64,000 nt of DNA from Massalongia carnosa (taxonomy: Eukaryota): positions 1,054,001 to 1,118,000 of the forward strand of contig OZ287081.1 of assembly GCA_965645245.1 (NCBI GenBank), written 5' to 3'. The position numbers were made by a program, and so were the translations under genes. The notes under the pieces are model-generated. The model was not told the DNA's origin. It did no database searches and was given only the letters and a program-made list of their open reading frames with translations. The stretch's first letter is position 1. Each line of letters opens with the position of its first letter. This document shows positions 170 to 30,766 of this stretch, in pieces.

Positions 170-3100
170 TACAATCGATCGACTTTTAGTTAAATATCAA
201 CCTATATCAACTGATCAATTTGTCATATGTGGAGATTTCAATGCACATCATAGCTGGTAGAATTCGAAGATTCAAAATGCAATTCGATCAGAAAATCTAG
301 TCAAATGGTTAAAATTAAACAAATGTAGTTTGATAAATACGCCTGATCTATATACATTTTTTGCTCATTCAGGAAACTCTTCATCTATTATTGATTTAAC
401 ATTTGCAAATTCTAAAATCGAAAACGCAATTACAAATTGGTCAATCGATGAAAACGCAGTCACGGGTTCAGATCATGAAGTTATTCGATTTGAACTTATC
501 GCGTCTTTCAAGAACTTGACGTCACATGTAACCGCATTATCGAATAAATACAACTGCAATAAAGCCGATTGGGATAAATTCGCGAAGTTTCTAGACGAAA
601 ATGCAGTAAAATACGAGTCCCAAATACAAAGTCTATTGAACAATTATCAATTTGATGAATCAGCGTTATATTTGCAAAACGTTATCAAAAACGCGGCTGA
701 AATGTTTATTCCGAAGACAAAAATATGCGCAAAATCGAAAAATTGGTGGTCTCAAGATTTATCCGGACTTCGAAAAATCATGTGTAGACATCGTCGAGAA
801 TGGAAGAATAATCCGTCCTATTTTAGTCATCAAACATTTAGACATAGTCGAATCGAGTACTTTCATGCAATTCGAAAAGCGAAACAGCAAACTTGGTTAG
901 CTTTCCTCGAAAACGCAGCGAATAAAGACGTATTTACAGCTTATAAATACACTAAACCGCGCATGTTCGAAAAAATACCACCTATTCAATATGAAAATAA
1001 CTTAAATGTTCAATTCGATCACAAATGCGATGCGTTTGTGTCAGCAATGTACACAAAAAACCCGTTCACGGATGATAATATTGAAGATTTAACGAATCAA
1101 GACAGCGAAAATGACAACAATTGGCCGAATTTAACCGAAAATGAATTGCAAAATGCGATTAGTTTGTTTAATCCAAAGAAATCATGTGGATCTGATGCAA
1201 TCAATTTCACAATAATTCAAAAATCGTTTCAACCATTGAAAAACGTGTTTTTTACTATTTATTCTAAGTTTATACAAATCGGTTATCACCCGTTATGTTG
1301 GCGAACAGGACTCGGTGCTGTTTTAAAAAAAGCTAATAAACCAGACTACTCGCTGCCAAAATCATATCGAATTATTACCTTACTGAATTGTCTTGGTAAA
1401 ATTGCGGAGAAAATAGTTGCTAATCGACTAGCCTACCTCGGCGAAAATTCGAGCTTGTTAGATACCGAACAAATGGGCGGACGGAAAAATCATTCTGCAA
1501 TCGATGCGGTAATGAACGTCGTTCATGATATCGAAATCGCAAACCGAAACAAAAACGTTTTATCATGTCTATTACTCGATGTCAAAGGAGCATTTGACTT
1601 TGTTTCGATTAATCAATTGCTAAATGTTATGAAAAAGCTGCATTTATCTCGCATAGTTATTCAATGGGTCAAGCATTTTATGACAAAACGATCGATCAAT
1701 TTGATATTCGATGAACACAAAAGCAAAACGTACTATATCGAATCTGGAATTCCACAAGGTTCACCTATTTCGCCAATTCTATTTCTGATTTATATTCGTT
1801 ACTTATTTCCGAAAATACGAATGAAATTCAATGCTCATTCACCTAGCTTTATAGACGATGTTGCAATATATGTTGAAAATAAAACTGCCACACAGAATTG
1901 CAAAGAAATCGAAATTATCGTCAAAACAGCTTTTGATTGGGCCGCAACGAATAATGTCAAATTTGATGACGACAAATCTGAGTTGATTCACTTCGAAAAG
2001 TCAAGAAATGCATCAAAAGACAAAGTGCAATTACCAAACGGGACAATACTAGAACCGAAAAATTCTGTCAAATGGTTAGGAGTCTGGTTAGACCGAAAAC
2101 TAAATTACAAAATACACGTCGAAACGCGAATTGCTTCTGCAAATCGATCGTTTTTCGCAATTCAAAATTTGATGAAGTCTGAATGGGGACTAAAGCCAAC
2201 TGCATGCAGACAGCTCTATCTGTCATGTATTATTCCTATTTCGGACTATGGCTCAGAAATCTGGTATAACGGTCAAAAGAAATATGAAAAGCTATTTCAG
2301 AATCTGCAAAATCGAATGATTCGAAAGATTTTAGGCACATTCAAAACCACGCCTGTTCAGGCGATGGAAATTGAATCGCATATTTTCCCAGCCAAGCTAC
2401 GATTGTTGATGAAAAATCAAAAATACGCAATTCGATTATTGAAGATTGCCGAAAATAATCCTATTTGTCAAAGAATTCCCAGTACCTATTCTGTGAAATT
2501 CGAAAACATCGGTTTTGACACTAGTTTATGGAACAACAGATATGCTGAATGGAACGAAGACGAGAAAAAATCGAGTAAACCTCATCCTAGTCAGCTTATC
2601 CGTATTCTTCATTCCGTTTCGGATATAGTTCATAAAACTGATGAATTCGAATCAGTAAATAATTTCATCAAACCATGGAAGCCGTCTTGTAAAATCAAGT
2701 TCCAAATCGAAAGATCCAAAGAAACAGCAAAGTCAAGTTATTATTCGACTTTATTAAAAATCCAATCAATAAACGCCGATAAATCGCGAATTTTACTCTA
2801 TACCGATGGATCAAAAACCGAGTTTTCAACTTCCGCTGTCACATTTGCACCAATTATGCGAAATTGGAACAATTTCACCGATAACTTCAATCGTTTTATC
2901 GAAAAAGATTGTCTCCTCAAACATCATACGATTTCGAAAAGCTGGAAATTAAACAAAAAGTCAAGCGTTAAAAACGCTGAACTCTATGCGATACTACAAG
3001 CAATAAAATGGGCATACAAATTGACAATTGCGAATATTCTCTTCAATTTGGAAAAAACGATTTGGATTTTTTCCGATAGCATAAACGCGATAAACGAAAT

Positions 3101-4020
3101 TCAGAACTTGACAAATCATACTTACGCAAAACAAATTCGAAAATTCTCGAAATGCTTATTCGGAAACAATTATCAGGTGGTTCTACAATGGATTCCTAGT
3201 CATTCGAAAATCGTCGAAAATGAAATTGCAGATAAAGCAGCAAAAGCGGGACATAGTCGAATCCTAGTCGAGTCTTCGATAATAACATTTGATTATGTAA
3301 AGGGTCAAATAAATCGAAATATGTTAGCCACATGGGCGAATCAATGGCAACAATGCAAGTCAAAAGGCAAATACTATGAGAAATTCGAAATGCAGCCGGG
3401 CAAATCGAGTTTTTATTATCTGTCGAATAATTGTTCGAAATTAATATTTGCGACTATTATGCAAATGAAATTCGGACACGGTTATTTTCGATCATATCTG
3501 CACCGATTGAAAGACTATAATTCGTCAAAATGCACAGGGCGCTGCAACGAACGCAAACGCCAGAACACTTATTGATGAATTGCATACATTATTCAAATGA
3601 AATCCTAAACATGAAACAAAATATCGATACCACAATTACTTTAAAAATGTTGTTTAATACTAGGATCGGAAATAATATTTTGATTAAATTTATTGTAGAT
3701 AACAAAATCGTGACTAGAAAATGGATGCTAGGTCAGCTCGATGACGAAAATATCGAAACGGGAGGTTGGGGAGAGATCGAATAGTAAAATTAGAAATGAT
3801 TTATGCTGGAATATTTACGAGCTTTACAAAAACAAATTGTAAAATCGATATTTCGATTACTAAAGGTTGTTACTAACACGGAGTAAAAACGAGGCAATAT
3901 TGACGATAGATAGTTGGGTTATAAAGGGTTGATTTATTTGTAAAATAAAACCATATCTTAAAATAGTTTAGTGTCATAACCTTAGGTTGAATACACTTAA
4001 TGAATAAATAAATAAAAAAA
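170..4020 (+). mobile_element. LINE family A (Tad1/I-group), 5'-truncated inside the endonuclease
   Basis: Colinear with the full-length copy at 44419-51148; ends in GAATAAATAAATAAAAAAA tail. No TSD found. Confidence 0.95.
330..3784 (+). pseudogene. LINE-A ORF2 remnant (APE C-terminus, RT, RNase H, C-terminal Cys/His motif)
   Basis: GSDH, YRIITLLN, LDVKGAFD, GIPQGSPISP, FIDD, WLGV, YTDGS, AELYAI, FSDS, WIPSH...NEIAD; 1-nt frameshift near 3553. Confidence 0.93.
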
Positions 4021-6783: not shown

Positions 6784-9229
6784 TTTTTTTTATTCATTTA
6801 TTCATTAAGTGTATTCAACCTAAGGTTATGACACTAAACTATTTTAAGATATGGTTTTATTTTACAAATAAATCAACCCTTTATAACCCAACTATCTATC
6901 GTCAATATTGCCCCGTTTTTACTCCTTGTTAGTAACAACCTTTAGTAATCGAAATATAGATTTTACAATTTGTTTTTGTAAAGCTCGTGAATATTCCAGC
7001 ATAAATCATTTCTAATTTTATTGTTCGATCTCTCCCCAACCTCCCGTTTCGATATTTTCGTCATCGAGCTGACCTAGCATCCATTTTCTAGTCGCGATTT
7101 TGTTATCAACAATAAATTTAATCAAAATATTATTTCCGATCCTAGTATTAAACAACATTTTTAAAGTAATTATGTTATCGATATTTTGTTTCATGTTTAG
7201 GATTTCATTTGAATAATGTATGCAATTCATCAATAAGTGTTCTGGCGTTTGACGTTCGTTGCAGCGCCCTGAGCATTTTGACGAATTATAATCTTTCAAT
7301 CGGTGCAGATATGATCGAAAATAACCGTGTCCGAATTTCATTTGCATAATAGTCGCAAATATTAATTTCGAACAATTATTTGACAGATAATAAAAATTCA
7401 ATTTGCCAGGCTGCATTTCGAATTTCTCATAGTATTTGCCTTTTGACTTGCATTGTTGCCATTGATTCGCCCATGTGGCTAACATATTTCGATTTATTTG
7501 ACCCTTTACATACTCAAATGTTATTATCGAAGACTCGACTAGGATTCGACTATGTCCCGCTTTTGCTGCTTTATCTGCAATTTCATTTTTGACGATTTTC
7601 GAATGACTAGGAATCCACTGTAGAACTACCTGATAATTGTTTCCGAATAAGCATTTCGAGAATTTTCGAATTTGTTTTGCGTAAGTATGATTTGTCAAGT
7701 TCTGAATTTCGTTTATCGCGTTTATGCTATCGGAAAAAATCAAAATCTTTTTTTCCAAATTGAAGAGAATATTCGCAATTGTCAATTCGTATGCCCATTT
7801 TATTGCTTGTAGTATTGCATAAAGTTCAGCCTTTTAAATGCTTGACTGTTTGTTTAATTTCCAGCTTTTCGAAATCGTATGATGTTTGAGGAGACAATCT
7901 TTTTCGATAAAATGATTGAAGTTATCGGTGAAATTGTTCCAATTTCGCGTAATTGGTGCAAATGTGACAGCGGAAGTTGAAAATTTGGTTTTTGATCCAT
8001 CGGTATAGAGTAACATTCGCGATTTATCGGCGTTTATTGATTGAATTTTGATAATGTCGAATAATAACTTGACTTTGCTGTTTCTTGTGATCTTTCGATT
8101 TGGAACTTGATTTTACAAGACGGCTTCTATCCATGGTTTGATGAAATTATTTACTGATTCGAATTCATCAGTTTTGTGAACTATATCCGAAACGGAATGA
8201 AGAATACGGATAAGCTGACTAGGATGAGGTTTACTCGATTTTTTCTCGTCTTCGTTCCATTCAGCATATCTGTTGTTCCATAAACTAGTGTCAAAACCGA
8301 TGTTTTCGAATTTCACCGAATAGGTACTGGGAATTCTTTGACAAATAGGATTATTTTCGGCAATCTTCAATAATCGAATTGCGTATTTTTGATTTTTCAT
8401 CAACAATCGTAGCTTGGCTGGTAAAATATGCGATTCAATTTCCATCGCCCGAACAGGCGTGGTTTTGAATGTGCCTAAAATCTTTCGAATCATTCGATTT
8501 TGCAGATTCTGAAATAGCTTTTCAAATTTCTTTTGACCGTTATACCAGATTTCTGAGCCATAGTCCGAAATAGGAATAATGCATGACAAATAGAGCTGTC
8601 TGCAGGCAGTTGGCTTTAGTCCCCATTCAGACTTCATCAAATTTTGAATTGCGAAAAACGATCGATTTGCAGAAGCAATTCGCGTTTCGACGTGTTTTTT
8701 GTAATTTAGTTTTCGGTCTAACCAGACTCCTAACCATTTGACAGAATTTTTCGGTTCTAGTATTGTCTCGTTTGGTAATTGCGCTTTGTCTTTTGATGCA
8801 TTTCTTGACTTTTCGAAGTGAATCAACTCAGATATGTCGTTATCAAATTTGACATTATTCGTTGCGGCCCAATCAAAAGCTGTTTTGACGATAATTTCGA
8901 TTTCTTTGCAATTCTGTGTGGCAGTTTTATTTTCGACATATATTGCAACATCGTCTCTAAAGCTAGGTGAATGAGCATTGAATTTCATTCGTATTTTCGG
9001 AAATAAGTAACGAATATAAATCAGAAATAGAATTGGCGAAATAGGTGAACCTTGTGGAATTCCAGATTCGATATAGTACGTTTTGATTTTGTGTTCATCG
9101 AATATCAAATTGATCGATCGTTTTGTCATAAAATGCTTGATCCATTGAATAACTATACGAGATACATGCAGCTTTTTCATGATATTTAGTAATTGATTAA
9201 TCGAAACAAAGTCAAATGCTCCTTTGACA
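6784..9229 (-). mobile_element. LINE-A minus copy, 3' part (continues at 16141-16898)
   Basis: Poly-T at 6784; RT/RNase H ORFs 7018-7785 and 8113-9229; breaks at GCTCCTTTGACA (9218-9229), which recurs at 16141-16152. Confidence 0.95.
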
Positions 9230-9453
9230 CATGAAGTGACCATCGGTCCTCCTCTTTCTACACCATCGGTCCTCACCACGGAGACGCCAAAGGCCTCACC
9301 GTGGGGCGACCGTCAAACATATAGATTTGCTCCTATTTCTTCGCATCAAAACAATGCTAATTTAACGCGTTCACACGCGTCGCAGACGTACGTACGGAAG
9401 AGGATACGAATGCTAACCGCCGAGGGGTAGAATGCGCGCGTCCCTGCACCATG

Positions 9454-10189
9454 CTTCTAAGGGTTCAAGTCCCTTCATGCAGTCATCAGCTGGAAGAAGA
9501 TGTGGACCAAAGGAGCCGCATCATCCCCCACCCGGGTAGAGTCGACACGCGTTCTAGCTCCTGAGAGTTCAAGTCTCCCCATGCAGTCATCAGCTGGGAT
9601 CAACAGAACGCGTAAAGGCACCGGGGCGAATGTTGTCACCTCACGAAAACTCTATCTCGTAGCAGAATAACAATATCCCATTTAATAGGCCCGGCCTGTT
9701 AAATAAAATCGTGGAAAATACAGAGTCACAAAACACATAGTCATCAATCACACGTTGTATAAAGCACACAGTTATAAAGCACACAGTCACAAACATACAG
9801 TCACAAATACACAGTCAAAAACACACAGTCAACAAACACATAGTCACAAAAAACACAGTCACAAATCAATAACACGTCCCTGTAAAGGGGGTTCTGCGGG
9901 GGCTCGTTAAGACAGATCTGCACCCCGTTAATATCGGAGAACATATTTTTAGAGGTTCAAGTCCTTTCTAGCAGTCATCAGCTGAAAATAATGTATTTGG
10001 ACACGGGCATGGTGTGGATTTGACATGAGTAGACCTCGATGGATCACAAAACGAATAAAAAGAGTTCAGCGGAACTTCGTTAATATTGTTCTCGAAGACC
10101 TCGTTAATAAGATTTTCATAGACCTCGTTAACAACGTTCGGTCATACTCTTAAAGGTTCAAGTCCTTTTATGCAGTCATCGGCTAAGAG
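9454..10189 (+). ncRNA. Four copies of a ~45-nt structured RNA motif (closing stem, T-loop hairpin, GCAGTCATCRGCT)
   Basis: Copies at 9454-9496, 9559-9599, 9944-9990 and 10147-10189 with compensatory stem changes. Confidence 0.65.
9719..9866 (+). repeat. Degenerate ~14-nt C/A-rich tandem repeat (ACACAGTCACAAA-like)
   Basis: About ten units visible directly. Confidence 0.85.
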
Positions 10190-11008
10190 CTAAAGACGTA
10201 CGACACGGGTCAGCTATGTCTATCACACGGGTCTCCTTCGTCTACAATACGGAGCCCTCCGGCTGAAAGAAATAAAACATATAGATACATAGTGTAGGGT
10301 CACACCCTACACGATACAAGGGATTTGGGTTATGCAAACCATCCGATTGATGGCTACCGTGAGCAACACGGCCCGAGCCGGAGTCGTACCGGGGATGGTA
10401 GAGGCACCCTCGTAATCAAATAGGAAACCCTTGGGACAAGAAGAGGGAAATATACGAGGAACCCGTTAATTGATAAAAGTCTAGGCCCTGAGCTAATAGA
10501 CGAATTTCAAACGAGCTCACCTCCGAGTTGTCCTCGACTCGTTTTGGTTAGTAGGGACGGAAGATCGATACTATACTGCCTGGTCAGGAGCATAGTGCTC
10601 GAAATCCCTGCGAGACATAGTCGGTTCATAAATGGGAGACCTTTATGAATAACGCGAAGTGGGCGTAAAAAACCCGTGAGGCGTGGTATACAATGGCGGC
10701 CACCGTACGGAGACCGTCTGCATAGCCCGAGAGGACAGTATGCGCATGTCGGTGTATATAGAACAGGGAATGTCTATCTCGCTCGTAACGAGACCCCGTC
10801 GGTTCGCCGGCGCATAGGCTACGGCTAGACTCGCCCTTGAAATATGCTTAAGGAGTAAACTGGGTTTGACCTGTGCGAAAGGGACGTCGTTCACCCAAAT
10901 CGTAGAATTCATCAATAGTCTTGGGCCGTAAAACGCACCAGTGAGATAAACGAAAACTGGGATAGAGACTTCACGAAGGAGATGTCAACTCTATTTTATC
11001 ATTCTTAG

Positions 11009-14000
11009 CCGGTACATGTAGTCAAATGATTGGTAAAGCAACCGAAAACTCCGAAAATTGGATTACAATTCAAAGGAAAAGTTCGAATCATAATTCGAAC
11101 AAAGTCAATCGATTTGATGCACTCAAGGCCAGACGACTCGTGATTTCACCGAAAAATCCTGACACTCAAATCGACTCTATGAAGTTGCGTGATCAAATTA
11201 ACACGCTATTAAAAAACGCAAATTTAAACATCATCGTCAATACTGTTGAAAAGTCCAAAACCGGTCAGAATATCGTTCTCACCAATAGCCCTGACAACAA
11301 TGCCGAAGAATTGTTGAAAAATAAATTTTCATGGGAACACATTTTCGAATCACAAAGAATTCGAAAAGACGAATCCTGGTTTGAAGTCATAGCACATGGA
11401 GTAAATATCTCGTTATTCGATAATAACATGCAATATTTGCAAACCGAAATCGAAAAATACAATTCGAATATGTAACTATGCGATTTACCAAGATGGCTTG
11501 CTCGGGATCGTCAAAACAAAGTCAAGTCGTCGGTAGTTTTGACTTTCAATAATCAAAATCAAGCGTCAAACGCGTTAAGAGGCGTGAATATCGCTGGTAG
11601 ATATTGTGACACGGAAATATTTGCTTCCGTTCGTCCAAACACGCAATGTATTAATTGTCAGAAATTTGGAAATTAGCATTATCAATGCAAAAGTCCGGCA
11701 AAATGCAATAAATGCGCACAAAGTCATGAAACGCATAATCATGAATGCACAACATGCAAGTCTAAAATCGCATGCGCACATGCAATTCTGAAATGCGTCA
11801 ATTGCAACAAAAATCATCAATCGAACGATATAGGTTGCGAAATGTTTATCTCGCTAAATCCTAGAAAATCGAATGATGAATTAATGCTTGGTTAATGGCG
11901 GGACAACATTCGTTGACAAATATCGAAAATACACAAAATGTCAAATTTATTCAACATAATTGTGCAAAGTCAACGAATGCAATGATTTCGAGTCTGGAAT
12001 ATGCAGTATTAAATCGTGTTGAAATTGTTTTATTTAAGGAACAATGAACTCGAGAACAAAAAACAATTTCCCATCCGTCATTCACATGTATTATGCCGAA
12101 AATAGCGACTTATCGGCCGAGAGTAGCTATATGCGTTACAAAATGCAATCCAAAATTACAATGCACGCCTAGAACGGATCTTATAAACGATACTGATCTG
12201 CAAATTATCGAAATTACAATTGATGAAGTTCGAAAATGCAGATCTTTAATCTTTACAATGAAAAAAGTCTAAACGATCGAGAAACATATACAATCGATCG
12301 ACATTTAGTTAAATATCAACCCATATCAACTGATCAATTTGTCATATGTGGAGATTTCAATGCACATCATCGCTGGTAGAATTCGAAGATTCAAAATGCA
12401 GTTCGATCAGAAAATCTAGTCAAATGGTTAAAATTAAACAAATGTAGTTTGATAAATACGCCTGATCTATATACATTTTTTGCTCATTAAGGAAACTCTT
12501 CATCTATTATTGATTTAACATTTGCAATTTCTAAAATCGAAAACGCAATTACAAATTGGTCAATCGATGAAAACGCTGTCACGGGTTCAGATCATGAAGT
12601 TATTTGATTTGAATTTATCGCGTCTTTCAAGAACTTGACGTCACACGCAACCGCATTATCGAATAAATACAACTGCACTAAAGCAGATTGGGATAAATTC
12701 GCGAAGTTTCTAGACGAAAATGCAATAAACCACGAGTCCCAAATTAAAAGTCTATTGAACAATTATCAATTTGATGAATCAGCGTTATATTTGCAAAACG
12801 TTATCAAAAACGCGGCTGAAATGTTTATTCCGAAGACAAAAATATGCAAAAAATCGAAAAATTAGTGGTCGCAAGATTTAACCGGACTTCGAAAAATCAT
12901 GTGTAGAAATCGTCGAGAATGGAAGAATAATCCGTCCTATTTTAGTCATCAAATATTTAGACATAGTCGAATCGAGTACTTTCATGCAATTCGAAAAGCG
13001 AAACAGCAAACTTGGTTGGCTTTCCTCGAAAACGCAGCGAATAAAGACGTATTTACAGCTTATAAATACACTAAACCGCGCATGTTCGAAAAAATACCAC
13101 CTATTCAATACGAAAATAAGTTAAATGTTCAATTCGATCACAAATGCGATGCGTTTGTGTCAGCAATGTACACAAAAAACCCGTTCACGGATGATAATAT
13201 TGAAGATTTAACGAATCAAGACAGCGAAAATGACAACAATTGGCCGAATTTAACCGAAAATGAATTGCAAAATGCGATTAGTTTGTTTAATCCAAAGAAA
13301 GCTTGTGGACCTGATGCAATCAATTTCACAATAATTCAAAAATCGTTTCAACCATTGAAAAACGTGTTTTTTACAATTTATTCTAAATTTATACAAATCG
13401 GTTATCACCCGTTATGTTGGTGAACAGGACTCGGTGCTGTTTTAAAAAAACCTAATAAACCAGACTACTCGCTGCCAAAATCATATCGAATTATTACCTT
13501 ACTGAATTGTCTTGGTAAAATTGCGGAGAAAATAGTTGCTAATCGACTAGCCTACCTCGGCGAAAATTCGAGCTTGTTAGATACCGAACAAATGGGCGGA
13601 CGCAAAAATCATTCTATTATCGATGCGGTAATGGACGTCGTTCATGATATCGAAATCGGAAACCGAAACAAAAACGTTTTATCATGTCTATTACTCGATT
13701 TCAAAGGAGCATTTGACTTTGTTTCGATTAATCAATTGCTAAATATCATGAAAAAGCTGCATTTATCTCGCATAGTTATTCAATGGGTCAAGCATTTTAT
13801 AACAAAACGATCGATCAATTTGATATTCGATGAACACAAAAGCAAAACGTACTATATCGAATCTGGAATTCCAAAAGGTTCACCAATTTCGCCAATTCTA
13901 TTTCTGATTTATATTCGTTACTTATTTCCGAAAATACGAATGAAATTCAATGCTCATTCACCTAGCTTTATAGACGATGTTGCAATATATGTCGAAAATA

Positions 14001-16140
14001 AAACTGCCACACAGAATTGCAAAGAAATCGAAATTATCGTCAAAACAGCTTTTGATTGGGCCGCAACGAACAATGTTAAATTTGATGACGACAAATCTGA
14101 CTTGATTCACTTCGAAAAGTCAAGAAATGCATCAAAAGACAAAGTGCAATTACCAAACGAGAAAATACTAGAACCGAAAAATTCTGTCAAATGGTTAGGA
14201 GTCTGCTTAGACCGAAAACTAAATTACAAAAAACACGTCGAAACGCGAATTGCTTCTGCAAATCGATCGTTTTTCGCAATTCAAAATTTGATGAAGTCTG
14301 AATGGGGACTAAAGCCAACTGCATGCAGACAGCTCTATTTGTCATTCATTATTCCTATTTCGGACTATGGCTCAGAAATCTGGTATAACGGTCAAAAGAA
14401 ATATGAAAAGCTATTTCAGAATCTGCAAAATCGAATGATTCGAAAGATTTTAGGCACATTCAAAACCACGCCTGTTCGGGCGATGGAAATTGAATCGCAT
14501 ATTTTACCAGCCAAGCTACGATTGTTGATGAAAAATCAAAAATACGCAATTCGATTATTGAAGATTGCCGAAAATAATCCTATTTGTCCAAGAATTCCAA
14601 GTACCTATTCGGTGAAATTTGAAAACATCGGTTTTGACACTAGTTTATGGAACAACAGATATGCTGAATGGAACGAAGACGAGAAAAAATCGAGTAAACC
14701 TCATCCTAGTCAGCTTATCCGTATTCTTCATTCCGTTTCGGATAGAGTTCACAAAACTGATGAATTCGAATCAGTAAATAATTTCATCAAACCATGGAAG
14801 CCGTCTTGTAAAATCAAGTTCCAAATCGAAAGATCAAAAGAAACAGCAAAGTCAAGTTATTATTCGACTTTTTATTAAAAATTCAATCAATAAACACCGA
14901 TAAATTGCAAATGTTACTCTATACCGATAGATCAAAAACCGAGTTTTTAACTTGCTGTCACATTTGCACCAATTACGCGAAATTGGAACAATTTGACCGA
15001 TAACTTCAATCGTTTTATCTAAAAAGATTGTCTCCTCAAATATCATACGATTTCGAAAAGCTGGAAATTAAACAAACAGTCAAGCGTTAAAAACGCTGAA
15101 CTGTTTGCGATACTACAAGCAATAAAATGGGCATACAAATTGACAATTGCGAATATTCTCTTCAATTTGGAAAAAATGATTTGGATTTTTTCCGATAGCA
15201 TAAACGCGATAAACGAAATTCAGAACTTGACAAATCATACTTACGCAAAACAAACTCGAAAATTCTCGAAATGCTTATTCGGAAACAATTATCAGTTGGT
15301 TCTACAATGGATTCTCAGTCATTCGAAAATCGTCCAAAATGAAATTGCAGATAAAGCAGCAAAAGCGGGACATAGTCGAATCCTAGTCGAGTCTTCGATA
15401 ATAACATTTGATTATGTAAAGGGTCAAATAAATCGAAATATGTTAGCCACATGGGCGAATCAATGGCAACAATGTAAGTCAAAAGGCAGATACTATGAGA
15501 AATTCGAAATGCAGCCGTGCAAATCGAGTTTTTATTATCTGTCGAATAATTGTTCGAAATTAATATTTGCGACTATTATGCAAATGAAATTCGGACACGG
15601 TTATTTTCGATCATATCTGCACCGATTGAAAGATTATAATTCTTCAAAATGCACAGGGCGCTGCAACGAACGTCAAACGCCAGAACACTTATTGATGAAT
15701 TGCATAAATTATTCAAATGAAATCCTAAACAAGAAACAAAATATCGATACCACAATTACTTTAAAAATGTTGTTTAATACTAGGATCGGAAATAATATTT
15801 TGATTAAATTTATTGTTGATAACAAAATCGCGACTAGAAAATGGATGCTAGGTCAGCTCGATGACGAAAATATCGAAGCGGGAGGTTGGGGAGAGATTGA
15901 ACAGTAAAATTAGAAATGATTTCTGCTGGAATATTCACGAGCTTTACAAAAACAAATTGTAAAATCGATATTTCGATTACTAAAGGTTGTTACTAACACG
16001 GAGTAAAAACGGGGCAATATTGACGATAGATAGTTGGGTTATAAATGGTTGATTTATTCATAAAATAAAACCATATCTTAAAATAGTTTATTGTCATAAC
16101 CTTAGGTTGAATACACTTAATGAATAAATAAATAAAAAAA
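11009..16140 (+). mobile_element. LINE-A, 5'-truncated within ORF1, degenerate; 3' part of the chimeric insert 9230-16140
   Basis: Match to ORF1 starts at CCGGTACATG (11009); ORF2 has several stops and frameshifts; A tail followed by TSD. Confidence 0.95.
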
Positions 16141-16898
16141 GCTCCTTTGACATCGAGTAATAGACATAATAAAACGTTTTTGTTTCGGTTTGCGATTTCG
16201 ATATCATGAACGACGTTTATTACCGCATCGATTGCAGAATGATTTTTGCGTCCGCCCATTTGTTCGGTATATAACAAGCTCAAATTTTCGCCGAGGTAGG
16301 CTAGTCGATTAGCAACAATTTTCTCCGCAATTTTACCAAGACAATTCAGTAAGGTAATAATTCGATATGATTTTGGCAGCGAGTAGTCTGGTTTATTAGG
16401 TTTTATTAAAACTGCACCGAGTCCTGTTCGCCAACATAACGGGTGATAACCGAATTGTATAAATTTAGAATAAATTGTAAAAAACACGTTTTTCAATGGT
16501 TAAAACGATTTTTGAATTATTGTGAAATTGAATGCATCAGGTCCACATGATTTCTTTGGATTAAACAAACTAATCGTATTTTGCAATTTCGTTTAAATTC
16601 GGCCGATTGTTGTCATTTTCGATGTCTTGATTCGTTAAATCTTCAATATTATCGTCCGTGAACGGGTTTTTTTTGTGTACATTGCTGACACAAACGCATC
16701 GCATTTGTGATCGAATTGAATATTTAACTTATTTTCATATTGAATAGGTGGTATTTTTTTCGAACATGCGAGGTTTAGTGTATTTATAAGCTGTAAATAC
16801 GTCTTTATTCGCTGCGTTTTCGAGGAAAGCCAACCAAGTTTTGCTGTTTCGCTTTTCGAATTGCATGAAAGTACTCGATTCGACTATGTCTAAATGTT
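16141..16898 (-). mobile_element. Continuation of the LINE-A minus copy (RT N-terminal region)
   Basis: Resumes exactly at the TSD; GYHPLCWR...LLDVKGA on the minus strand. Confidence 0.93.
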
Positions 16899-17725
16899 AA
16901 TCAGCAAAAAGCCAACCCCCAAAACATCGGTACCCTATATTTTGATATACTGAAACTTTCCCAACTTATTCTCCTCATTCTTCTCATTCATTTGAGCCTA
17001 CCAGAAGCTAAAACCTATCAGAATTGGGTACAGGAGAGCTCTCCCACTGCTCCTGCAGAGTTTTCCTCGCCGTCTGTCCGCCCCTTCACCAAAAAGCGCG
17101 TCCAAAAAATCTACAAAACACAAAAACACCAACAACAACATCAAAAATCGCTCGATTTTCGATAATTCTTCGGTTTAATTGTCGCATAAATCTCATCTAT
17201 TATCACAAAAATTATCTACAAAATATCATCACTGTCGCGTAACTGTACAACCTGTTCTCGAGACAACAAAACTTCTTGGTGTTCATTTGAAATTTAAGGT
17301 TACCGGTACCGTATACACCATTCCATTTTGGGTTTTTTCGATTTTCGTTGAACTGCCGACCAACAATCTGCTCAAACGAAGGGGAAAAACGTCTGAAATA
17401 GGGTTAAACCAAAGGCCCTGTTTCAGGCTAACCAGAATAGGAAGTCTCCTCTCTCTCATTGTACTTGATTTTTATTTCTGGATCAAAAACATTTTTAAAA
17501 AAAAAAAATTTTCTGTTCGATCGTAAAATTCTTATTATATTCCATATATCGTAGTGTCAAGGTAAACAGTTAAATAAGATCTATTGCCTAAGCGAGGAAC
17601 GGTCTATTTTAACTCGACTAGGATTTATTTGACTTGTTATTGTCAAATAAATAGGGTTTGGAAAGCAAGAGTCTTTAGACCAGTAAATCGGCGTAAAAAC
17701 ATCTCTATTCTGACTATTACGTCCA

Positions 17726-20700
17726 TGTAAGAACCACTATCCAGGGAAGACGAATAGTTTTTTATTTTTATTTATTCATTAAGTGTATTCAACCTAAGGT
17801 TATGACACTAAACTATTTTAGGATATGTTTCTATATTACAAATAAATCAACCCTTTATAACCCATCTATGTATTGTCAATTTTTCCCCATTTTTACTCCG
17901 TGTTAGTAACAACCTATAGTAATCGAAGAATATCGATTTTAAAATTTGTCTTTGTAAGTTCGTGAATGTATCAGCATAAATCGTTTCTGATTTTACTGTT
18001 CGATCTCTCCCCAACCTCCAGTTTCGAAAATCTCGTCATCAAGCTGACCTAGTATCCATTTTCTTGTCGCGATTTTGTTATTGACAATGAATTTAATCAA
18101 AATGTCATTTCCGATTTTTGTATTAAACAACATATTCAAGTTGATGGTAGTATCGATATTTTGTTTCATGATTTGAATTTCATCGAAATAGTGAATGCAA
18201 TTCAATAACAAGTGTTCTGGCGTTTGTCGTTGATTGCATCGATTTGTGCATTTTGACGAATTATAATCTTTCAATCGCTGTAAATAAGATCGAAAATAGC
18301 CGTGTCCGAATTTTAATTGCATAATAGTAGCAAATATCAATTTGGAACAGTTGTTTGATAAATAATAAAATCTCGATATGCCAGGTTTCATTTCGAATTT
18401 CTCGTAGTATTTGCCTTTTGATTTGCATTGTTGCCATTGATTCGTCCATGTGGTTAGCATATTTTGATTTATTTGATCTTTTACATAATCAAATGTTATC
18501 GCCGAGGACTCGACTAGGATTTGATTATGGCCCGTCTTTGCTATTTTGTCTGCAATTTCGTTTTCGGTAATATTTGAATGACTCGGAACCCATTGCAAAA
18601 TCACCTGAAAATTGCTTTCAAATAAGATTTTTGCGAGCTTTCGAATTTGTCTGGCGAAAATATGATTTGTCAAGTTCTGAATTTCGTTTATCGCGTTTAT
18701 ACTATCAGAAAAAATCCAAATCGTTTTTTCTAAGTTCGATAAAATATTAGTATTCGACAATTTATAGACCCATTTCATTGCTTGTAAAATCGCATGCAGT
18801 TCCGCATTTTTAATGCTTGACTTTTTGCTTAATTTCCAGCTTTTCGAAATCGTATGATACTTGATCAGACAATCTTTTTCGATAAATCGATTAAAATTAT
18901 TGATAATATTACTCCAATTCCTTATAATTGGCGCAAATGTGACTGCAGACGTTGCAAATTCGATTTTCGATCCATCTGTATAAAGTAAAACTCGGGATTT
19001 ATCGGAGTTCATTGATTTAATTTTGGATAAGGTCGAATAATAACTTGATTTAGCAGATTCCTTTGTATTTTCGATTTGAAATTTGATTTTGCAAGGCGAT
19101 TTCCAAGGTTTAATAAAATGATTTGATTGTTCAAATTCATCAGTTTTGTGAACTATATCGGAAACGGAATGAAGAACGCGAATAAGCTGACTAGGATGTC
19201 GTTTATTTGTTTGTTTTTCGTCTTCGTTCCATTCGGCATATTTGTTGTTCCATAAACTTGTGTCAAAACCGATATTTTCGAATTTTATCGAATATGTGTT
19301 TGGAATTCTTTGACAAATAGGGTTATTTTCGGCAATCTTCAATAATCGAATTGCGTATTTTTGATTTTTCATTAATAATCGAAGTTTAACTGGTAAAACA
19401 TGTGATTCAATTTCCATCGCCTGAACAGGTGTAGTTTTGAAAGTTCCTAAAATCTTTCGAATCATTCGATTTTGTAGGTTCTGAAATAGTTTTTCATATT
19501 TCTTTTGACCATTATACCAAATTTCTGAGCCGTAGTCCGAAATAGGAATAATGCATGACATATAGAGCTGTCTGCATGCGGTCGGTTTCAGACCCCATTC
19601 GGATTTCATCAAATTCTGAATTGCAAAAAACGATCGATTCGCAGAAGAGATCCGCGTTTCGACGTGTTTTTTGAAATTTAGTTTTCGGTCTAACCAGACG
19701 CCCAACCATTTGACTACATTTTTCGGTTCTAGTACTGTCCCGTTTGGTAATTCCAATGTGTCTTTCGATACATTTCTTGTCTTTTCGAAGTGAATCAGCT
19801 CGGATTTATCGTCATCAAATTTGACATTATTCGATGCGGCCCAATCAAAGTCCGTTTTGACTATGATTTCGATTTCTTTGCAATTCTGTTTTGCAGTTAT
19901 ATTTTCGATATATATTGCAACATCGTCAATAAAACTGGGAGAATGTGCATTGAATTTCATTCGTATTTTCGGAAACAAGTGACGAATGTAAATCAGAAAT
20001 AGATTAGGCGAGATTGGTGAGCCTTGTGGAATTCCTGATTCGACATAATATGTTTTGCTTAAATTTTCATCAAATATCAAATTGATCGATCGCTTTGTCA
20101 TGAAATGCTTGACCCATTGAATTATTATGCGAGATAATTTCAGCTTTTTCATAACATTTAGCAGTTGATTAATCGAGACAAAGTCAAATGCGCCTTTGAC
20201 ATCGAGTAATAAACATGATAAGACGTTTTTATTTCTATTTGCAATTTCAATATCATGAACAACGTTCATTACTGCGTCAATTGCAGAATGATTTTTGCGT
20301 CCGCCCATCTGTTCGATATCGAGTAAATTCGAATTTTCGCCGGAAGACGAATAGTAGTCAGCTACCTAAGAGACTAAGCATGAAGAAGAGAAATCTATCT
20401 ACAAAGAAGAATATGAAATCTATATGCCCGTTTTCCCTTCTTCTCGAAGTTTCCATCCGGCTCTAGAAGCTTATCTCCGAAACTTCGGTCGGAAAGAGCC
20501 GTTGGATTTAGCGCTCCCTGTAATACGGATGGCGCTAGAGGGATACGTGATCGCCTATGGCGGTTGCGGGATTAACTAGCGTGGACCATGCCGTAGTACG
20601 AAGTCGCATAAGCCGTCGAGGCTGACACACTGCTATCTTACCCCGAAACTCCGGAGTTATTGTTATCACGTTCTTGACTACTTACAGATCAAACACCTGT

Positions 20701-21570
20701 CGAGGCCGTGGTGGTAGATTGCCATGGAGTGTAAGGCGGACTCCTGTGGAGACGCCAAGGAACTCTATATGGGATCTACTGGCCTACTCGGAGCTACTGG
20801 ATCTCTTGATGGTTCAAGAGAGGTAGCAGGAGGCACGGCTCGCTGGACGCAGCTTGAGCTAGGCTCCCTTGTGTAAAATTCAGCTTCAACCTTTATTACT
20901 ACGTTGGTAGTGATGTCGGCTGAATGAACCTACATGACCTCGTTGTCTAGACCTTGTGTCTAGAGGCAGGTCCGCGGTGTAGCGAGGTATTCAGTCGGAG
21001 GTAACCTTCCATCACTAGGTAGTGGTGACGGCGAAATGAAGCTACATAGCCTGAGGCATGTAGTGAGGGATCTAGCCGGGGGTAGAATTGTTCTACCTTG
21101 CAAGGGAAGATCTAGAAAGCTGCTCGAGGCTGACTAGATAATCCAGCGAACGCCGAGTTCGTGGATGGATCATGAGGGATGGTTGGATGTAATGCGATAA
21201 AGTCGGATGTGGATTGCAAGGCTGTAATGCTCGCAAGACTCCCAAGGCTTGCAAGGCTCCTAAGGCTCCAAGGCTCCCAAGGCTATAGGCTTAGGGTGAG
21301 TAGGATAAATATCAGAACGAATCTTGTAGTATTCGTTAGCAATTAGTCTTTATTCTATGAACAACCTACGTTTGGGTCTCGGACGAGATCTCTTGGTCTA
21401 AGCACTTCCACATCCATTAGTTCTTTGGATCACATATACTCTCGGAGACTAGCACGTAGTAGCTATCTTCCTCCACTCACGCTGAGCATTTCCCCTTTCG
21501 AGATCAGTGTCGCTCGTGATTAGCTTACTGGTCTCGTAGCCCATTACACTCCCACAACCGAGTCCTGACA
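17726..21570. mobile_element. Long (~1.25 kb net) solo-LTR-like insertion, itself split by LINE-B
   Basis: TGTAAG...CTGACA termini; degenerate 5-bp TSD GTCCA/TTCCG (GTCCG in the uninterrupted LINE); internal (CAAGGCTCC)n-like repeat ~21228-21290; no ORF. Confidence 0.7.
17759..20341 (-). mobile_element. LINE subfamily B, 5'-truncated, open 771-aa RT-RNase H frame (17993-20308)
   Basis: 14-bp TSD GGAAGACGAATAGT (17745-17758, 20342-20355); protein diverged from A. Confidence 0.95.
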
Positions 21571-21650
21571 TTCCGGGGAACGTCAGAATAAACTATTTGG
21601 GGGCGATAAAGGGGATATAGCAAAGGCAACATCGATTTATTTATAAAATC

Positions 21651-23066
21651 ATGTTTAACGCGGTAATGAACCGTCGGAATATACCAAGGACACCACCCCC
21701 AGCCGGTCCCGCCCCCCTATCTTCCCCCTACCCGGCCCCCCCCCGACACTCCCCCGGACCATCTCCGGTGGCGTTGATAGGGAGCTCTCCCCGTCATGAA
21801 CCTATGGATCAAACTCGCGAATATGCATCAGCCCCGTCAACACCGACAACAAAGGCAACGAAATTCCCATCGGGTCCATTTTCCACTATCTTGCCGATGC
21901 CTTCATTGAACTTAAACATTGGATCAAGCCCATCAATCAAACGAAATAAAAGACGCACATTTGACGAACATTCGAGAGATAGCCAAGAAGCGATCAATCG
22001 GGCAAATTCAATTGAGCTTCTAAAGTCGGCCAAAATAGCATTATTGCAATCATTTGTACTAGACCAAAATCCACAAACGGCTATCGTAATTGACAACGTT
22101 ATTTCGTTGATTTCGAAAAAATCAATCAATTTACAAATATCCTTAGATATGATTAACTATAAAATGGGCATAGTACTTGATCAAACTAGTCATCTTTCCT
22201 CAAAAACGTCACAACAACAAACGACTCCACTACAGAACGGTCCAAAAATCCAAAAACCTGTTGTTAAATTGATTGAAAATTCAATTATCGAAAATCAAAC
22301 CATTCGCAAAGGAGCCACCGGGGTCTCTGGTAACAATGTTAGCACAACCGGTACATGGAGTCAAATGCTTGGAAAAGCAACCGAAAACTCCGAAAATTGG
22401 ACGACTATTCAAAGGAAAAGTTCAGTCCAAAACGGTCAGAATATCGTTCTCACCACTAGCCCTGACAACAATGCCGAAGAATTGTTGAAAAATAAATCTT
22501 CATGGGAACACATTTTCGAATCACAAAGAATTCGAAAAGACGAATCCTGGTTTAAAGTCATAGCACACGGAGTAAATATCTCGTTATTCGATAATAACAT
22601 GCAATATTTGCAAACCGAAATCGAAAAATACAATTCGAATATGCAACTATGCGATTTACCAAGATGGCTTGCTCGGGATCGTCAAAACAAAGTCACGTCG
22701 TCGGTAGTTTTGACTTTCAATAATCAAAATCAAGCGTCAAACGCGTTAAGAGGCGTGAATATCGCGGGTAGACATTGTGACTCGGAAATATTTGCTTCCG
22801 TTCGTCCAAACACGCAATGTATTAATTGTCAGAAATTTGGAAATAAGCATTATCAACGCAAAAGTCCGGCAAAATGCAATATATGCGCACAAAGTCATGA
22901 AACGCATGATCATGAATGCACAATATGCAAGTCTAAAATTGCATGCGCACATGCAATTCTGAAATGCGTCAATTGCAACAAAAATCATCAATCGAACGAT
23001 ATAGGTTGCGAAATGTTTATCTCGCTAAATCCTAGAAAATCGAATGATGAATTAATGCTTGGTTAA
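21651..23066 (+). CDS. LINE-A ORF1 (gag-like zinc-knuckle protein) with in-frame 56-aa internal loss
   Basis: 471-aa ORF colinear with the 527-aa ORF1 at 45317-46900. Confidence 0.85.
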   Translation: MFNAVMNRRNIPRTPPPAGPAPLSSPYPAPPRHSPGPSPVALIGSSPRHEPMDQTREYASAPSTPTTKATKFPSGPFSTILPMPSLNLNIGSSPSIKRNKRRTFDEHSRDSQEAINRANSIELLKSAKIALLQSFVLDQNPQTAIVIDNVISLISKKSINLQISLDMINYKMGIVLDQTSHLSSKTSQQQTTPLQNGPKIQKPVVKLIENSIIENQTIRKGATGVSGNNVSTTGTWSQMLGKATENSENWTTIQRKSSVQNGQNIVLTTSPDNNAEELLKNKSSWEHIFESQRIRKDESWFKVIAHGVNISLFDNNMQYLQTEIEKYNSNMQLCDLPRWLARDRQNKVTSSVVLTFNNQNQASNALRGVNIAGRHCDSEIFASVRPNTQCINCQKFGNKHYQRKSPAKCNICAQSHETHDHECTICKSKIACAHAILKCVNCNKNHQSNDIGCEMFISLNPRKSNDELMLG

Positions 23067-29340: not shown

Positions 29341-30170
29341 ACTAGTAGTGAGAACGATATTCTGACCGGTTTTCGATTTTTCGACCTTGTTGATTACGAT
29401 ATCTAACTTCGCGTTGCTGAATTGCGCGTTGATTTGATCTCGAAGTTTCAATGAGTCGATATCGCCGATTTGAATTTTTGGTGTAATTATCAGTCGGCTG
29501 AGTTTGATTGCATTTAATTCGTCGGTTTTGTCGAATTTGTTCGAGGTTTGACTCTAATTTTTCGATCTGGAAACAGTGGTCCATATTTCGGAATTTGCAG
29601 TTGCTTTTCCAAGCATTTGACTCCAGGATGGAGGCGTGTTATTGACCTTGTACTCGTAACCCGGCGGTTTCCTTTCGTGCGTTCGTGATGACGACTTTAT
29701 TTGGATTTTCAGTCGTATTGACTTGTTGAACCCGAGTCGATTTTCGCGTTGTTTCTAAGGTTCGATTACTACTAGTCTGATCAATTACCTTGTCTAATTT
29801 CCAATTCATCATGTCTAGTGTTGTTTTTATATTAATTGATTTTTTTGTCAATAAGTAATTGATATTATCAACGACTATTGCTGTTTCTGGATTTTGATCT
29901 AAGACAAATGACTTCAATAACGCGGTTTTAGCCGTTTTGAGTAATCCAATCGATTGTGCTCGATTGATTGCTTCTTGACTTTCCTCTACTCGTTCGTCGA
30001 ATGTTTTTCGTTTGTTACGTTTGATAGGCGGGCTTAATTCTATATTAGAATTTAACGATGGCATGGGTAGATTGGTAGTAAATTGTCCAGATGGGAATTT
30101 GGTTGCTTTTGGGGTCGGCGTAGTCGGGGCGGACGAATATTCATGTGATTGATCCATAGGCTCGTCAAGT

Positions 30171-30666
30171 TGTAATAGCGCGGCAATACAGGACTGCGCT
30201 AGCTCCTGGGATGACTCACCCAAGAAGACCGGGTGACTGATAATCCGGATGCTTGGTCATGATAAGGCGGATAGCAATACTAAGCCATCAGCAATCAGCC
30301 TTACCAGTTTATTAGGCAGCAACTGAAGCTATTCAGATAAGCCTCGATCTCATGGTAGGCCTGGGACGCCTAGGAGACCTCAGCTGAAGGCAACAAGGCT
30401 ATCTGCTAGAACTCAGCTGAAGGCAACAAGGTTATCTGCTAGACCTCAGCTGAAGGCAGCAAGGCTATCTATTAGACCTCAGCTGAAGGCAACAAGGCAG
30501 ACAGGTAACCAGACAAGTAGTTAGTAAATAGGACCCCAAGGGGTATATAGAAAGCTCGATTCCCATCTTCAGGGAATCATCTTTGAGCTTTAGCACCTAC
30601 CAATCTATTAGCAGTCACACTGAGCATTATAACCCATAAGGACTAGTGTCTACTGTCCCTCTCATA
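30171..30666 (+). repeat. 5' LTR (33-bp tandem repeat 30375-~30497; TATA-like box ~30544)
   Basis: Near-identical to 36174-36669. Confidence 0.95.
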
Positions 30667-30766
30667 ATTCTAAAAGCTCCATATCTTAGGATAGCTTGGT
30701 CCGACTGTTGATAGTTCAATCCTATCACACCTACCGTCCAAAAAATTCAAACTATTTATCGTCAAC

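Follow-up and report, generated by a model that had tools for sequence, protein, structure and literature searches.

How does a long non-coding sequence come to stand directly before the severed 3' part of a LINE? The question is raised by an insertion of 6911 bp into a minus-strand copy of a LINE, here termed LINE-A, in the 64-kb window (the whole stretch of DNA that was analysed; Table 1). The insertion lies between two perfect 12-bp copies of the same sequence. The host LINE is unbroken across it with an overlap of 12-14 nt, its segments 9227-6785 and 16898-16137 corresponding respectively to 13701-16140 and 12952-13714 within the insert (BLASTN). Hence, the flanking 12-mers are a genuine target-site duplication (TSD). 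This 12-mer has five exact and two one-mismatch matches in the window, against a chance expectation of 0.25, and the remaining matches fall at the equivalent position of other LINE-A copies. A single TSD thus encloses the whole unit, with the LINE 3' end last (...AATAAATAAATAAAAAAA). With this perfect TSD and A-rich tail, the non-coding segment, which we call the module, and the LINE behind it are the product of one integration event carried out by the LINE-A machinery.

The 3' partner, 11009-16140, matches positions 46014-51149 of a full-length LINE-A copy at 97.3% identity over 5138 nt (BLASTN). As position 46014 falls 697 nt inside the 527-codon ORF1 of that reference, the LINE of the insert is cut in the middle of ORF1. 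The ORF at 261-3575, belonging to another LINE-A copy, specifies in order an endonuclease, a reverse transcriptase (RT) and an RNase H domain (Pfam: Exo_endo_phos_2, 2.1e-07; RVT_1, 1.9e-35; RNase_H, 3.8e-09). An apurinic-type endonuclease combined with these two domains is the ORF2 pattern of Tad1-like LINEs of the I superfamily, the clade to which we take the partner to belong. A Pfam search of ORF1 recovered no family, and its C-terminus, as read from the translation, is Cys-rich. The closest named relatives of the LINE come from Lasallia. Other elements in the window have also received LINE-A insertions, for example the GC-rich LINE interrupted at 44419.

No ORF in the module reaches 100 aa, and the GC content of the segment in 500-nt windows is 41-50%, as against 31-37% in the LINE part. 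BLASTN of 9230-11008 against the rest of the window returned only a 41-nt internal repeat, and a search with the module profile found no second copy in the 64 kb. No terminal inverted repeat was detected in the segment, its sole inverted pair being internal, and inspection of the letters at its ends revealed no duplication of its own. The initial annotation had described the same 12-mer on either side, a LINE truncated mid-ORF1 with an A tail, and 1779 bp of foreign sequence with neither kin in the window nor terminal inverted repeats or a TSD of its own; all of these observations were reproduced. The direct repeats at the 5' terminus appear to mark the 5' end region of a family, since other copies either add repeat units there or meet unrelated flanks; contigs from public runs have joints at 9274>9241/9242 and loose ends at 9239, 9242 and 9274. 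In each 46-nt motif, a 5-bp stem closes the loop TTCAAGT, which is invariant, and GCAGTCATCAGCTG comes next; the stem co-varies, with at least five pairs kept in 60 of 75 instances from the window and metagenome loci.

Table 1. Coordinates of the composite insertion, its host LINE and the full-length LINE-A reference within the window.
Feature	Position	Strand	Remark
Host LINE-A, 3' part, interrupted by the chimera	6785-9229	-	window BLASTN
Left TSD copy, 12 bp, GCTCCTTTGACA	9218-9229	.	within host LINE
Complete non-coding module, 1779 nt	9230-11008	+	5' partner of the chimera
Direct repeats, ~23 nt (ACCATCGGTCCTC...)	9239-9284	+	5' terminus of module
46-nt motif, four copies	9450-9495, 9554-9599, 9942-9987, 10143-10188	+	region 9450-10188
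Tandem repeats, 14-15 nt	9716-9865	+	
Structured RNA domain, 25 predicted helices	10250-11008	+	nhmmer E 9e-162
Junction dinucleotide CC	11009-11010	+	
5'-truncated LINE-A	11009-16140	+	ORF1 from codon ~233, ORF2, 3' UTR, A-rich tail; frames broken
Right TSD copy, 12 bp	16141-16152	.	exact second occurrence of GCTCCTTTGACA
Host LINE-A, resumption beyond the chimera	16141-16898	-	window BLASTN
Full-length LINE-A, reference copy	44419-51149	+	own 13-bp TSD
TSD of reference LINE-A, GCCGGCCTCGTCT	44406-44418 and 51150-51162		
5' UTR of reference LINE-A	44419-45316		unlike module
ORF1 of reference LINE-A	45317-46900		527 codons
ORF2 of reference LINE-A	from 46900		

The 5' segment, which had been described as a structured RNA, does share a conserved predicted fold with its relatives. 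The module profile matches the window segment through its last position (nhmmer), and the last ~760 nt, which run to a 3' terminus (...CATTCTTAG) that is invariant in the family, contain 134 predicted pairs in the consensus structure, 117 of which are retained in the window copy. Compensatory changes occur at 73 pairs, compared with 38±3.6 in shuffled alignments (a value reached by 0 of 500 shuffles) and 12-21 in slid controls, while 94.5% of cells can pair as against 86.0% in shuffles. In this predicted fold, the covariation is a signature of selection on the RNA structure of the module. Rfam searches over 9000-11300 gave just two sub-threshold chance matches and those over sets of 8 and 11 metagenome loci gave none, so that no known ribozyme was found in the module or those loci; ARAGORN predicted 0 tRNA genes.

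Several lines of evidence bear on whether such a module was captured once or repeatedly mobilized. From run X1, 6015 contigs align to 8730-11500 at 85-99% identity, and individual module positions show a letter that departs from the window's in 14-45 different contigs. The module is also present in runs labelled with three other organisms, and one run containing the segment is labelled a lichen metagenome. Homologues with a conserved block order were recovered at 39 metagenome loci, and in a related metagenome family the module measures 1780 nt with both ends sharp in 10 loci. Judged by its sequence, 9230-11008 is a complete copy of a multi-copy DNA family rather than a one-off RNA capture. 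Twenty-three unique loci reach profile positions 769-773 and, like the window, diverge directly after ...CTTGG/CTTAG. Where sequence is present behind the module end (22 loci), it is LINE-derived and on the same strand in 18, and the LINE is in each case 5'-truncated. The four loci with no identified partner comprise two in which no LINE domain was detected downstream of the module by Pfam (L030, L008) and two with less than 500 nt behind it (L004, L017). There are 15 different module-LINE junctions in the metagenome loci, involving at least three LINE lineages, and the truncation point varies between module copies. The composite at L022 shows a TSD of ~14 bp against the empty paralogous site in L015; thus, composites at other loci are mobilized as units as well. 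The module family most likely lives only as a passenger before LINE 3' parts.

Such an arrangement has a precedent in the MINE elements of the rice blast fungus, originally described by Fudal et al. 2005 (via PMC2104539), which consist of a full-length 1.1-kb WEIRD RNA joined to a 5'-truncated MGL LINE at 28 junction sites (Gogvadze et al. 2007, PMC2104539). As related modules stand ahead of a variety of truncated LINEs in other contigs of fungus-like character, the module looks like a hitch-hiking RNA of this type, previously described in the rice blast fungus alone. The initial annotation had proposed that numerous copies joined to LINEs at differing positions would point to a WEIRD-like passenger, and the 15 junctions with one fixed module 3' nucleotide bear this out.

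The window junction lies at the module end common to the 23 loci and to contigs of runs X4, X5 and X7. The dinucleotide CC that follows may represent either microhomology or the last letters of the module, since it is found in LINE-A at this site and also behind the module end in the X4, X5 and X7 contigs. In the X5 and X7 contigs, the module precedes LINE-A in the same orientation with 557 and 200 extra letters, respectively, and their junctions hence differ from that of the window. Among the contig pieces listed, none bridges the exact window junction 11008/11009. We consider it fairly probable that the insertion is a MINE-type composite retroelement, whose module RNA was joined via a template jump during LINE-A retrotransposition. 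Existing composites would first supply module transcripts that all end alike (...CUUGG/CUUAG, with C or CC perhaps appended), presumably made from a promoter within the module, their 3' ends being set by the module itself through cleavage or through trimming down to the structured domain. While the LINE-A RNA was undergoing target-primed reverse transcription, the RT would then leave it near codon 233 of ORF1 and continue on the 3' end of the module RNA, with an overlap of 0-2 nt, copying it to its 5' end. The joined copy was inserted as one unit by the LINE-A machinery. Integrated composites might in turn be re-transcribed from the module and mobilized in trans via their LINE tail, which would allow the module to swap partner LINEs.

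The two RNAs could instead have been joined before reverse transcription, either by splicing, in trans or in cis within a read-through transcript, from the last G of the module to cryptic acceptors in the LINE or by ligation of cleaved module RNA to a LINE fragment, with the LINE machinery copying the chimeric RNA. This accounts for the junction data about as well as template switching does: the module side of the joint never varies, its last letter is G after G or A, a pattern common at exon ends, and the LINE letters preceding the junction are AG in all six junctions that could be checked (in one metagenome family, with a longer partner-LINE copy at hand), which is acceptor-like rather than expected of a random jump. 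We know of no spliced-leader-type trans-splicing in fungi, however, and splicing also sits poorly with the AA at the window's LINE-A site, with the non-AG sites that are roughly predicted for X5 and X7, and with the finding that a GT-type intron start follows the module in no copy. The MINE junctions read GCC before A or T, not AG (PMC2104539). According to a recent preprint, RNA ligation is a known route to LINE-1 chimeras, with trans-splicing nominated as well (Law & Burns, bioRxiv 10.1101/2025.02.02.635956). On balance, we regard joining before reverse transcription as unlikely.

It is quite improbable that the module is the native 5' UTR of some LINE lineage and its copies internally deleted or recombinant LINEs. 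LINE 5' UTRs often contain repeated monomers, as the module does, its identified partners are always LINEs with the module 5' and on the same strand, and in L014 it is followed by ~4.4 kb of LINE including part of ORF1, the endonuclease and the RT. Yet even the LINEs of L014, L007 and L029 apparently start inside or after ORF1, and full-length LINE-A copies carry a different, unrelated 5' UTR. Moreover, one identical module breakpoint would be needed across the 15 different junctions, and modules 92-96% identical are joined to LINEs merely 67-79% alike or unalignable. A shade less probable still is read-through, in which a truncated LINE-A landed behind the module in a source element and a module-driven transcript extending to the LINE poly(A) site was retrotransposed. 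The outcome would look alike, with one TSD and the module at the 5' end, and LINE-A does insert into other elements of the window, such as the GC-rich LINE; but a chance insertion could fall anywhere, whereas this junction coincides to the nucleotide with the point at which the module is left in 23 loci and the X4, X5 and X7 contigs, and the LINE-A TSDs of the window (GCTCCTTTGACA, GCCGGCCTCGTCT and GGAAGACGAATAG) show no preference resembling the module end.

The capture of an extrachromosomal RNA (mycoviral, satellite or viroid-like) or of a unique host ncRNA, which the initial annotation had listed among its candidates, would suit a non-coding, structured segment that is GC-richer than its surroundings, but is very improbable and largely refuted by the many diverged DNA copies, by its conservation in 39 loci as a DNA element linked to LINEs, by the absence of any viral-collection contig matching the two conserved module motifs scanned, and by the lack of Rfam matches to a ribozyme or known ncRNA family; nor was anything found that points to a mitochondrial DNA origin. 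What stands of the earlier interpretation is the bipartite MINE-like retrocopy within a single TSD, with a repeated structured passenger, and what is not borne out is the mycovirus, the satellite or viroid and the once-archived RNA.

To our knowledge, MINE and WEIRD have for about twenty years been known from one fungus, rice blast, with no known function for WEIRD. The MINE architecture is now seen in a different, probably lichen-forming fungus, and the 5' RNA there is part of a family that is widespread, has several LINE partners, always ends at the same 3' position and possesses a large structure backed by covariation. The question of what WEIRD is thereby becomes testable: whether a discrete module RNA exists, how its end is formed, whether it binds LINE proteins and whether WEIRD is a member. 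The composites also offer a natural system for the gain or swapping of 5' promoter regions by LINEs and for the acquisition of LINE tails by non-autonomous elements. More speculatively, and with the odds against it, the module might be a new class of retro-parasite, a kind of "5' SINE": a ribozyme-like or RNP-forming RNA of ~0.8-1.8 kb that carries its own promoter and determines where it ends (through self-cleavage or by serving as a splice donor), and which actively joins itself to LINE RNA 3' parts, thereby refreshing its LINE tails and outliving the turnover of LINE families across fungi, with WEIRD as one member.

Among known systems, the chimeric U6 snRNA/LINE-1 retrocopies of mammals likewise combine a complete RNA with a fixed 3' end and a variably truncated LINE in one TSD. 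However, the module is neither an snRNA nor a member of any Rfam family, is 17 times longer, has no known solo gene, and forms composites that seem to propagate further. A chimera with a known snRNA or snoRNA as 5' partner was rejected, there being no real Rfam match over 9000-11300 or in the loci searched. SINEs with LINE-derived tails are comparable as non-autonomous elements mobilized in trans by a LINE 3' end, and we take the hairpin loop TTCAAGT to resemble a tRNA T-loop or box B. In contrast to SINEs, no tRNA, 5S or 7SL head was found in the module by Rfam and ARAGORN, its 1.8 kb is long for polymerase III, and its LINE tail is newly acquired at many positions rather than fixed. The T-loop-like hairpin being the sole such feature, a tRNA-derived SINE was rejected.

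Larson et al. are said to have described spliced LINE-1 copies (SpIREs) in 2018, and promoter capture by 5'-defective LINE-1 is treated by Law & Burns (bioRxiv 10.1101/2025.02.02.635956). Like 5' transduction, these involve foreign or rearranged 5' sequence that is retrotransposed with a LINE body and may bring a promoter, but here a single structured and conserved module, always with the same end, is reused across LINE lineages, rather than a locus-specific flank. Simple 5' transduction of a source flank with an arbitrary joint was rejected, as the window junction falls on the canonical last module nucleotide, which 23 loci share.

The closest counterpart is MINE of Magnaporthe grisea/oryzae, which shares a full-length non-coding 5' RNA of ~1-2 kb, its direct fusion to a fungal LINE truncated at many positions, and a TSD of 10-20 bp around the unit. 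MINE is reported with no solo WEIRD (PMC2104539); here, 18 of 22 modules precede a LINE, with four lacking an identified partner. The likeness is one of architecture, and the covariation-supported structure is seen in the module. The host lineage and the LINE are different, the module is 1.78 kb as against 1.1 kb for WEIRD, and the GCC before A or T of MINE contrasts with the AG of one metagenome family and with the CC that comes behind the module in the lineage of the window. Finally, while WEIRD was reported to stand alone without relatives elsewhere (PMC2104539), relatives of the module occur in many contigs and with several LINE lineages.

The chimera is real: a 1779-bp non-coding 5' part (9230-11008, hereafter the module) and a truncated copy of the LINE family LINE-A together interrupt a host LINE on the minus strand. 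The 12-mer GCTCCTTTGACA occurs at both 9218-9229 and 16141-16152. On one side of the break the host LINE aligns from 9227 to 6785 with positions 13701-16140 of the inserted LINE copy, and on the other from 16898 to 16137 with positions 12952-13714, the two stretches overlapping by 12-14 nt. Since both flanks align to adjoining parts of the inserted copy, the host LINE is continuous across the insertion; the 12-mer repeat is genuine, and the initial annotation was right to place a single TSD around the entire insertion of 6911 bp. The LINE part (11009-16140) is 97.3% identical to 46014-51149 over 5138 nt and finishes in the A-rich tail that had been described at the 3' end of the chimera. Position 11009 falls at codon ~233 of ORF1; the truncation thus truly lies in the middle of this ORF, again as proposed. 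The claims that the 5' 1779 bp are unrelated to the rest of the window and have no ends of their own also hold, as this part has no match elsewhere there and carries neither terminal repeats nor a separate duplication. Its GC content is 41-50% in 500-nt windows versus 31-37% in the LINE part, and it contains no ORF of 100 codons. The chimera is the product of a single integration event by the LINE machinery.

The other elements of the window are collected in the table below. Endonuclease, RT and RNase H domains were detected on the ORF of another LINE-A copy than the full-length one. Two further GC-rich stretches were considered as chimeras and rejected. The one preceding the full-length LINE-A (43455-44418) belongs to another LINE, rich in GC, which was the target of the LINE-A insertion and of its separate TSD; this second LINE contains a piece of ORF1 with a zinc knuckle and, at 51447-52166, an endonuclease domain. 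The other, at 20343-21571 beside a truncated minus-strand LINE, is no chimera because the TSD encloses just the minus-strand LINE. In translated comparisons with the LINEs found behind the module in three metagenome loci (L007, L014 and L029), the GC-rich LINE is 30-45% identical and LINE-A 22-31%, i.e. the former is the closer of the two. The further transposons include a Gypsy-type LTR retrotransposon (gag, protease, RT, integrase and chromodomain), two Tc1/mariner-type DDE_3 transposase remnants and one pogo-type DDE_1 transposase, and an ordinary host gene appears to be absent from the window.

Transposable elements of the window and the hairpin repeats within the module
Feature	Position	Strand	Remarks
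Full-length LINE-A	44419-51149		own TSD GCCGGCCTCGTCT
LINE-A ORF1	45317-46900		527 codons; preceded by 5' UTR of ~900 nt, followed by ORF2
Second, GC-rich LINE	43455-44418 + 51163-53050		split by full-length LINE-A (TSD GCCGGCCTCGTCT)
Another LINE-A copy	16909-17724 + 21572-27313		nested insertion 17725-21571 in its 5' UTR
GC-rich ~1.25-kb element	17725-17758 + 20343-21571		split by minus-strand LINE
LINE 85% like LINE-A	17759-20342	-	TSD GGAAGACGAATAG
Further transposons	30000-36900; 37541-38800; 54885-56315; 58343-59101		
TTCAAGT hairpin repeats	9450-10188		co-varying 5-bp stem

Between 26% and 56% of the words sampled from the module are present in seven public sequencing runs from five studies, the labels of which comprise four coded organisms and "lichen metagenome". 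The runs listed with the module include none of RNA, which has no bearing on whether it is expressed. The fungus carrying the window is probably a lichen-forming ascomycete. Contigs of four runs were aligned to 8730-11500. In one of these, X1, 6015 contigs fall on this interval with identities of 85-99%, and a letter differing from that of the window is seen at single module positions in 14-45 different contigs; the run X4 likewise provides several contigs per position. These many variant contigs per position indicate that the module is a multi-copy, diverged DNA family, which disposes of the earlier suggestion of a one-off capture of an RNA. Read depth was not equated with copy number, and depth figures were left unused. 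Copies vary in how many ~23-nt repeats they carry at the 5' end (joints 9274>9241/2), and given that eight X1 contigs pass into unrelated flanks at 9242, the window copy begins in the 5' end region of the family.

Searches of the module against Rfam returned only two matches, both at chance level (E 0.23 and 0.9) and far under the gathering scores, those with 8 and with 11 of the related loci described below recovered no family, and ARAGORN found no tRNA in the module. A group-I-like or other ribozyme, weighed on account of the constant final G, gains no support from the Rfam searches on the loci. The virus and viroid-like RNA candidates of the initial annotation are likewise rejected, as neither of two conserved motifs of the module occurs in the viral contig collection and no Rfam family was found. 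One conserved motif is also absent from prokaryote genomes, and a protein search whose query was a spurious ORF on the reverse strand of the module (P0121) gave 2 matches only.

Scanning metagenome contigs with the core of a 46-nt motif, GTTCAAGTC-N7-GCAGTCATCAGCTG, returned 39 loci; the module itself contains four copies of this motif. The region 9450-11008 is collinear with the loci at 72-78% identity by BLASTN and profile search, in the shared order of motif copies, matches to 10289-10438, 10543-10755 and 10839-10923, and then the end. In one locus group the module measures 1780 nt, close to the 1779 nt in the window; its 5' start is sharp in 10 loci, and its 3' end is sharp as well. The 1780-nt module additionally bears near its 5' end a second partial, diverged copy of the structured domain (L022 9336-9784; profile positions ~125-505, E 1e-16 to 1e-19), which lies at the same place in L001, L002, L014, L015, L024, L027, L032 and L033.

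The last ~780 nt of the module from the window and 12 loci were aligned with MAFFT by sequence alone, i.e. without fitting to a structure. The consensus structure of this alignment has 134 pairs in 25 helices, with compensatory changes in 73 pairs. Standard pairs occupy 94.5% of the cells versus 86.0±0.4% in shuffles, and the 73 pairs changed on both sides compare with 38±3.6 in shuffles, none of 500 reaching 73, and with 12-21 when the partners are slid by 1-3 columns. Selection acts on the RNA structure of the module family. Of the 134 predicted pairs, 117 are kept by the window copy and 133-134 by the best loci, so that the former is slightly decayed. Upstream, the 46-nt motif corresponds to a hairpin with the invariant loop TTCAAGT, followed by GCAGTCATCAGCTG; at least five pairs close this loop in 60 of 75 instances from the window and the loci, with many different stems, and in one locus family the hairpin recurs with a 183-nt period. 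It resembles a tRNA T-arm or box B, and could serve as a promoter monomer or a protein-binding site.

In the alignment of 3' regions, all loci track the module up to ...ATCCTTGG and diverge at the next letters, with CTTAG, GTTGG and TCTAG as variants of the module-end letters; 23 unique loci extend to profile positions 769-773 of 773. The window diverges after ...CATTCTTAG, with CC as the following letters, and thus presents a complete module joined at the family-wide last nucleotide to a truncated LINE-A. Six 20-kb loci (L001, L011, L016, L024, L027 and L033) are extremely AT-rich, with 24-28% GC; the module end of the AT-rich loci is CTTAG in place of CTTGG, as expected from C-to-T/G-to-A repeat mutation (RIP-like).

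Same-strand LINE-derived sequence follows the module in 18 of the 22 loci having sequence there; the other four (L004, L030, L008 and L017) have no LINE assignment, and in L030 and L008 Pfam recognizes no LINE domain in the ORFs that follow the module. The LINE behind the module spans part of ORF1, endonuclease and RT in L014, and endonuclease and RT in L007, while the junction in L029 lies in the ORF1 zinc-knuckle region. It starts at about residues 198, 340, 473 and 530 of the LINE-A ORF2 query in L010, L015, L037 and L025, at about 559, 561 and 610 in L039, L009 and L016, and further 3' in L022, L001, L027, L033, L002, L032, L024 and L031. Modules of the 1780-nt group share 92-96% identity with that of L014, and their LINE partners come from at least three lineages, which are either too different to align or 67-79% alike; one module is used with several LINE lineages. 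The initial annotation had named copies fused at different LINE positions as the mark of a passenger like WEIRD, the RNA part of the Magnaporthe chimeric retroelement MINE (WEIRD RNA plus MGL LINE), and these 18 loci indeed hold 15 distinct junctions. In the public runs, a contig from X4 departs from the window sequence directly after 11010, one from X5 has the module, 557 other letters and then LINE-A from the letter matching 11009, and one from X7 has the module, 200 letters and then LINE-A ~2.5 kb further down in unchanged relative orientation. The loose-end letters of the X4 and X5 contigs have no match in the window. We infer that module and LINE-A have been joined elsewhere, in other copies or genomes, at further positions of LINE-A. 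Compared with an empty paralogous site in L015, the L022 composite, consisting of the module and ~700 nt of LINE tail, is an insertion flanked by a ~14-bp TSD; such composites, that of the window included, are therefore mobilized as single units.

As the mechanism, we favor a template jump: the reverse transcriptase would have switched from LINE RNA to the 3' end of a module RNA, which is also how MINE and U6/L1 are explained. The module would exist as a discrete RNA with a defined 3' end, which might be generated by cleavage, by use as a splice donor or by trimming as far as the structured domain, and it may supply a promoter, whereby the composites would be transcribed and mobilized again. 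Ranked below this is the joining of module and LINE RNAs by splicing or ligation prior to reverse transcription. AG is the LINE dinucleotide directly preceding the junction in all six cases that allow a check, namely those with a longer partner-LINE copy among the loci (L001, L002, L022, L024, L031 and L037), with an overlap of 0-3 nt with the module end. This AG could be acceptor-like or a property of the reverse transcriptase. A recent preprint on LINE-1 chimeras counts RNA ligation among the known mechanisms and proposes trans-splicing as a candidate (10.1101/2025.02.02.635956). At the window junction, the LINE letters are AA and the CC after the module end is common to LINE-A; the X4, X5 and X7 contigs align through the same CC. 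The LINE-A sites predicted from the spacings in X5 and X7, uncertain by indels, are not AG and are followed by CC. For MINE, the published junctions have GCC before the site and A/T after it (PMC2104539). Some sequence rule seems to operate at the junctions, with too few data to tell which.

The jump to the module end also fares better than a nested LINE-A insertion behind the module followed by read-through. The latter would place the junction anywhere in the upstream element, whereas it is observed at the nucleotide where all other copies end; a target preference of LINE-A for the module end is unlikely, as the target sequences of its insertions in the window are unrelated. That the module is merely the leader of LINE-A itself is rejected, given that full-length LINE-A copies carry a different 5' UTR and a search of the window with the module profile recovers this one module only.

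The main value of these chimeras is that they make the structure and mechanism of a WEIRD-type passenger RNA amenable to study. The analogy with MINE drawn at the outset is upheld, as the structural hallmarks described for MINE (PMC2104539) are all seen here: the 5' RNA is non-coding and full-length, the LINE behind it is truncated to a variable extent, and a single TSD encloses both. The likeness is one of architecture. WEIRD is reported to have no relatives (PMC2104539), whereas the module has many. Beyond the description of MINE, the module RNA has a large conserved structure and partners with several LINE lineages.
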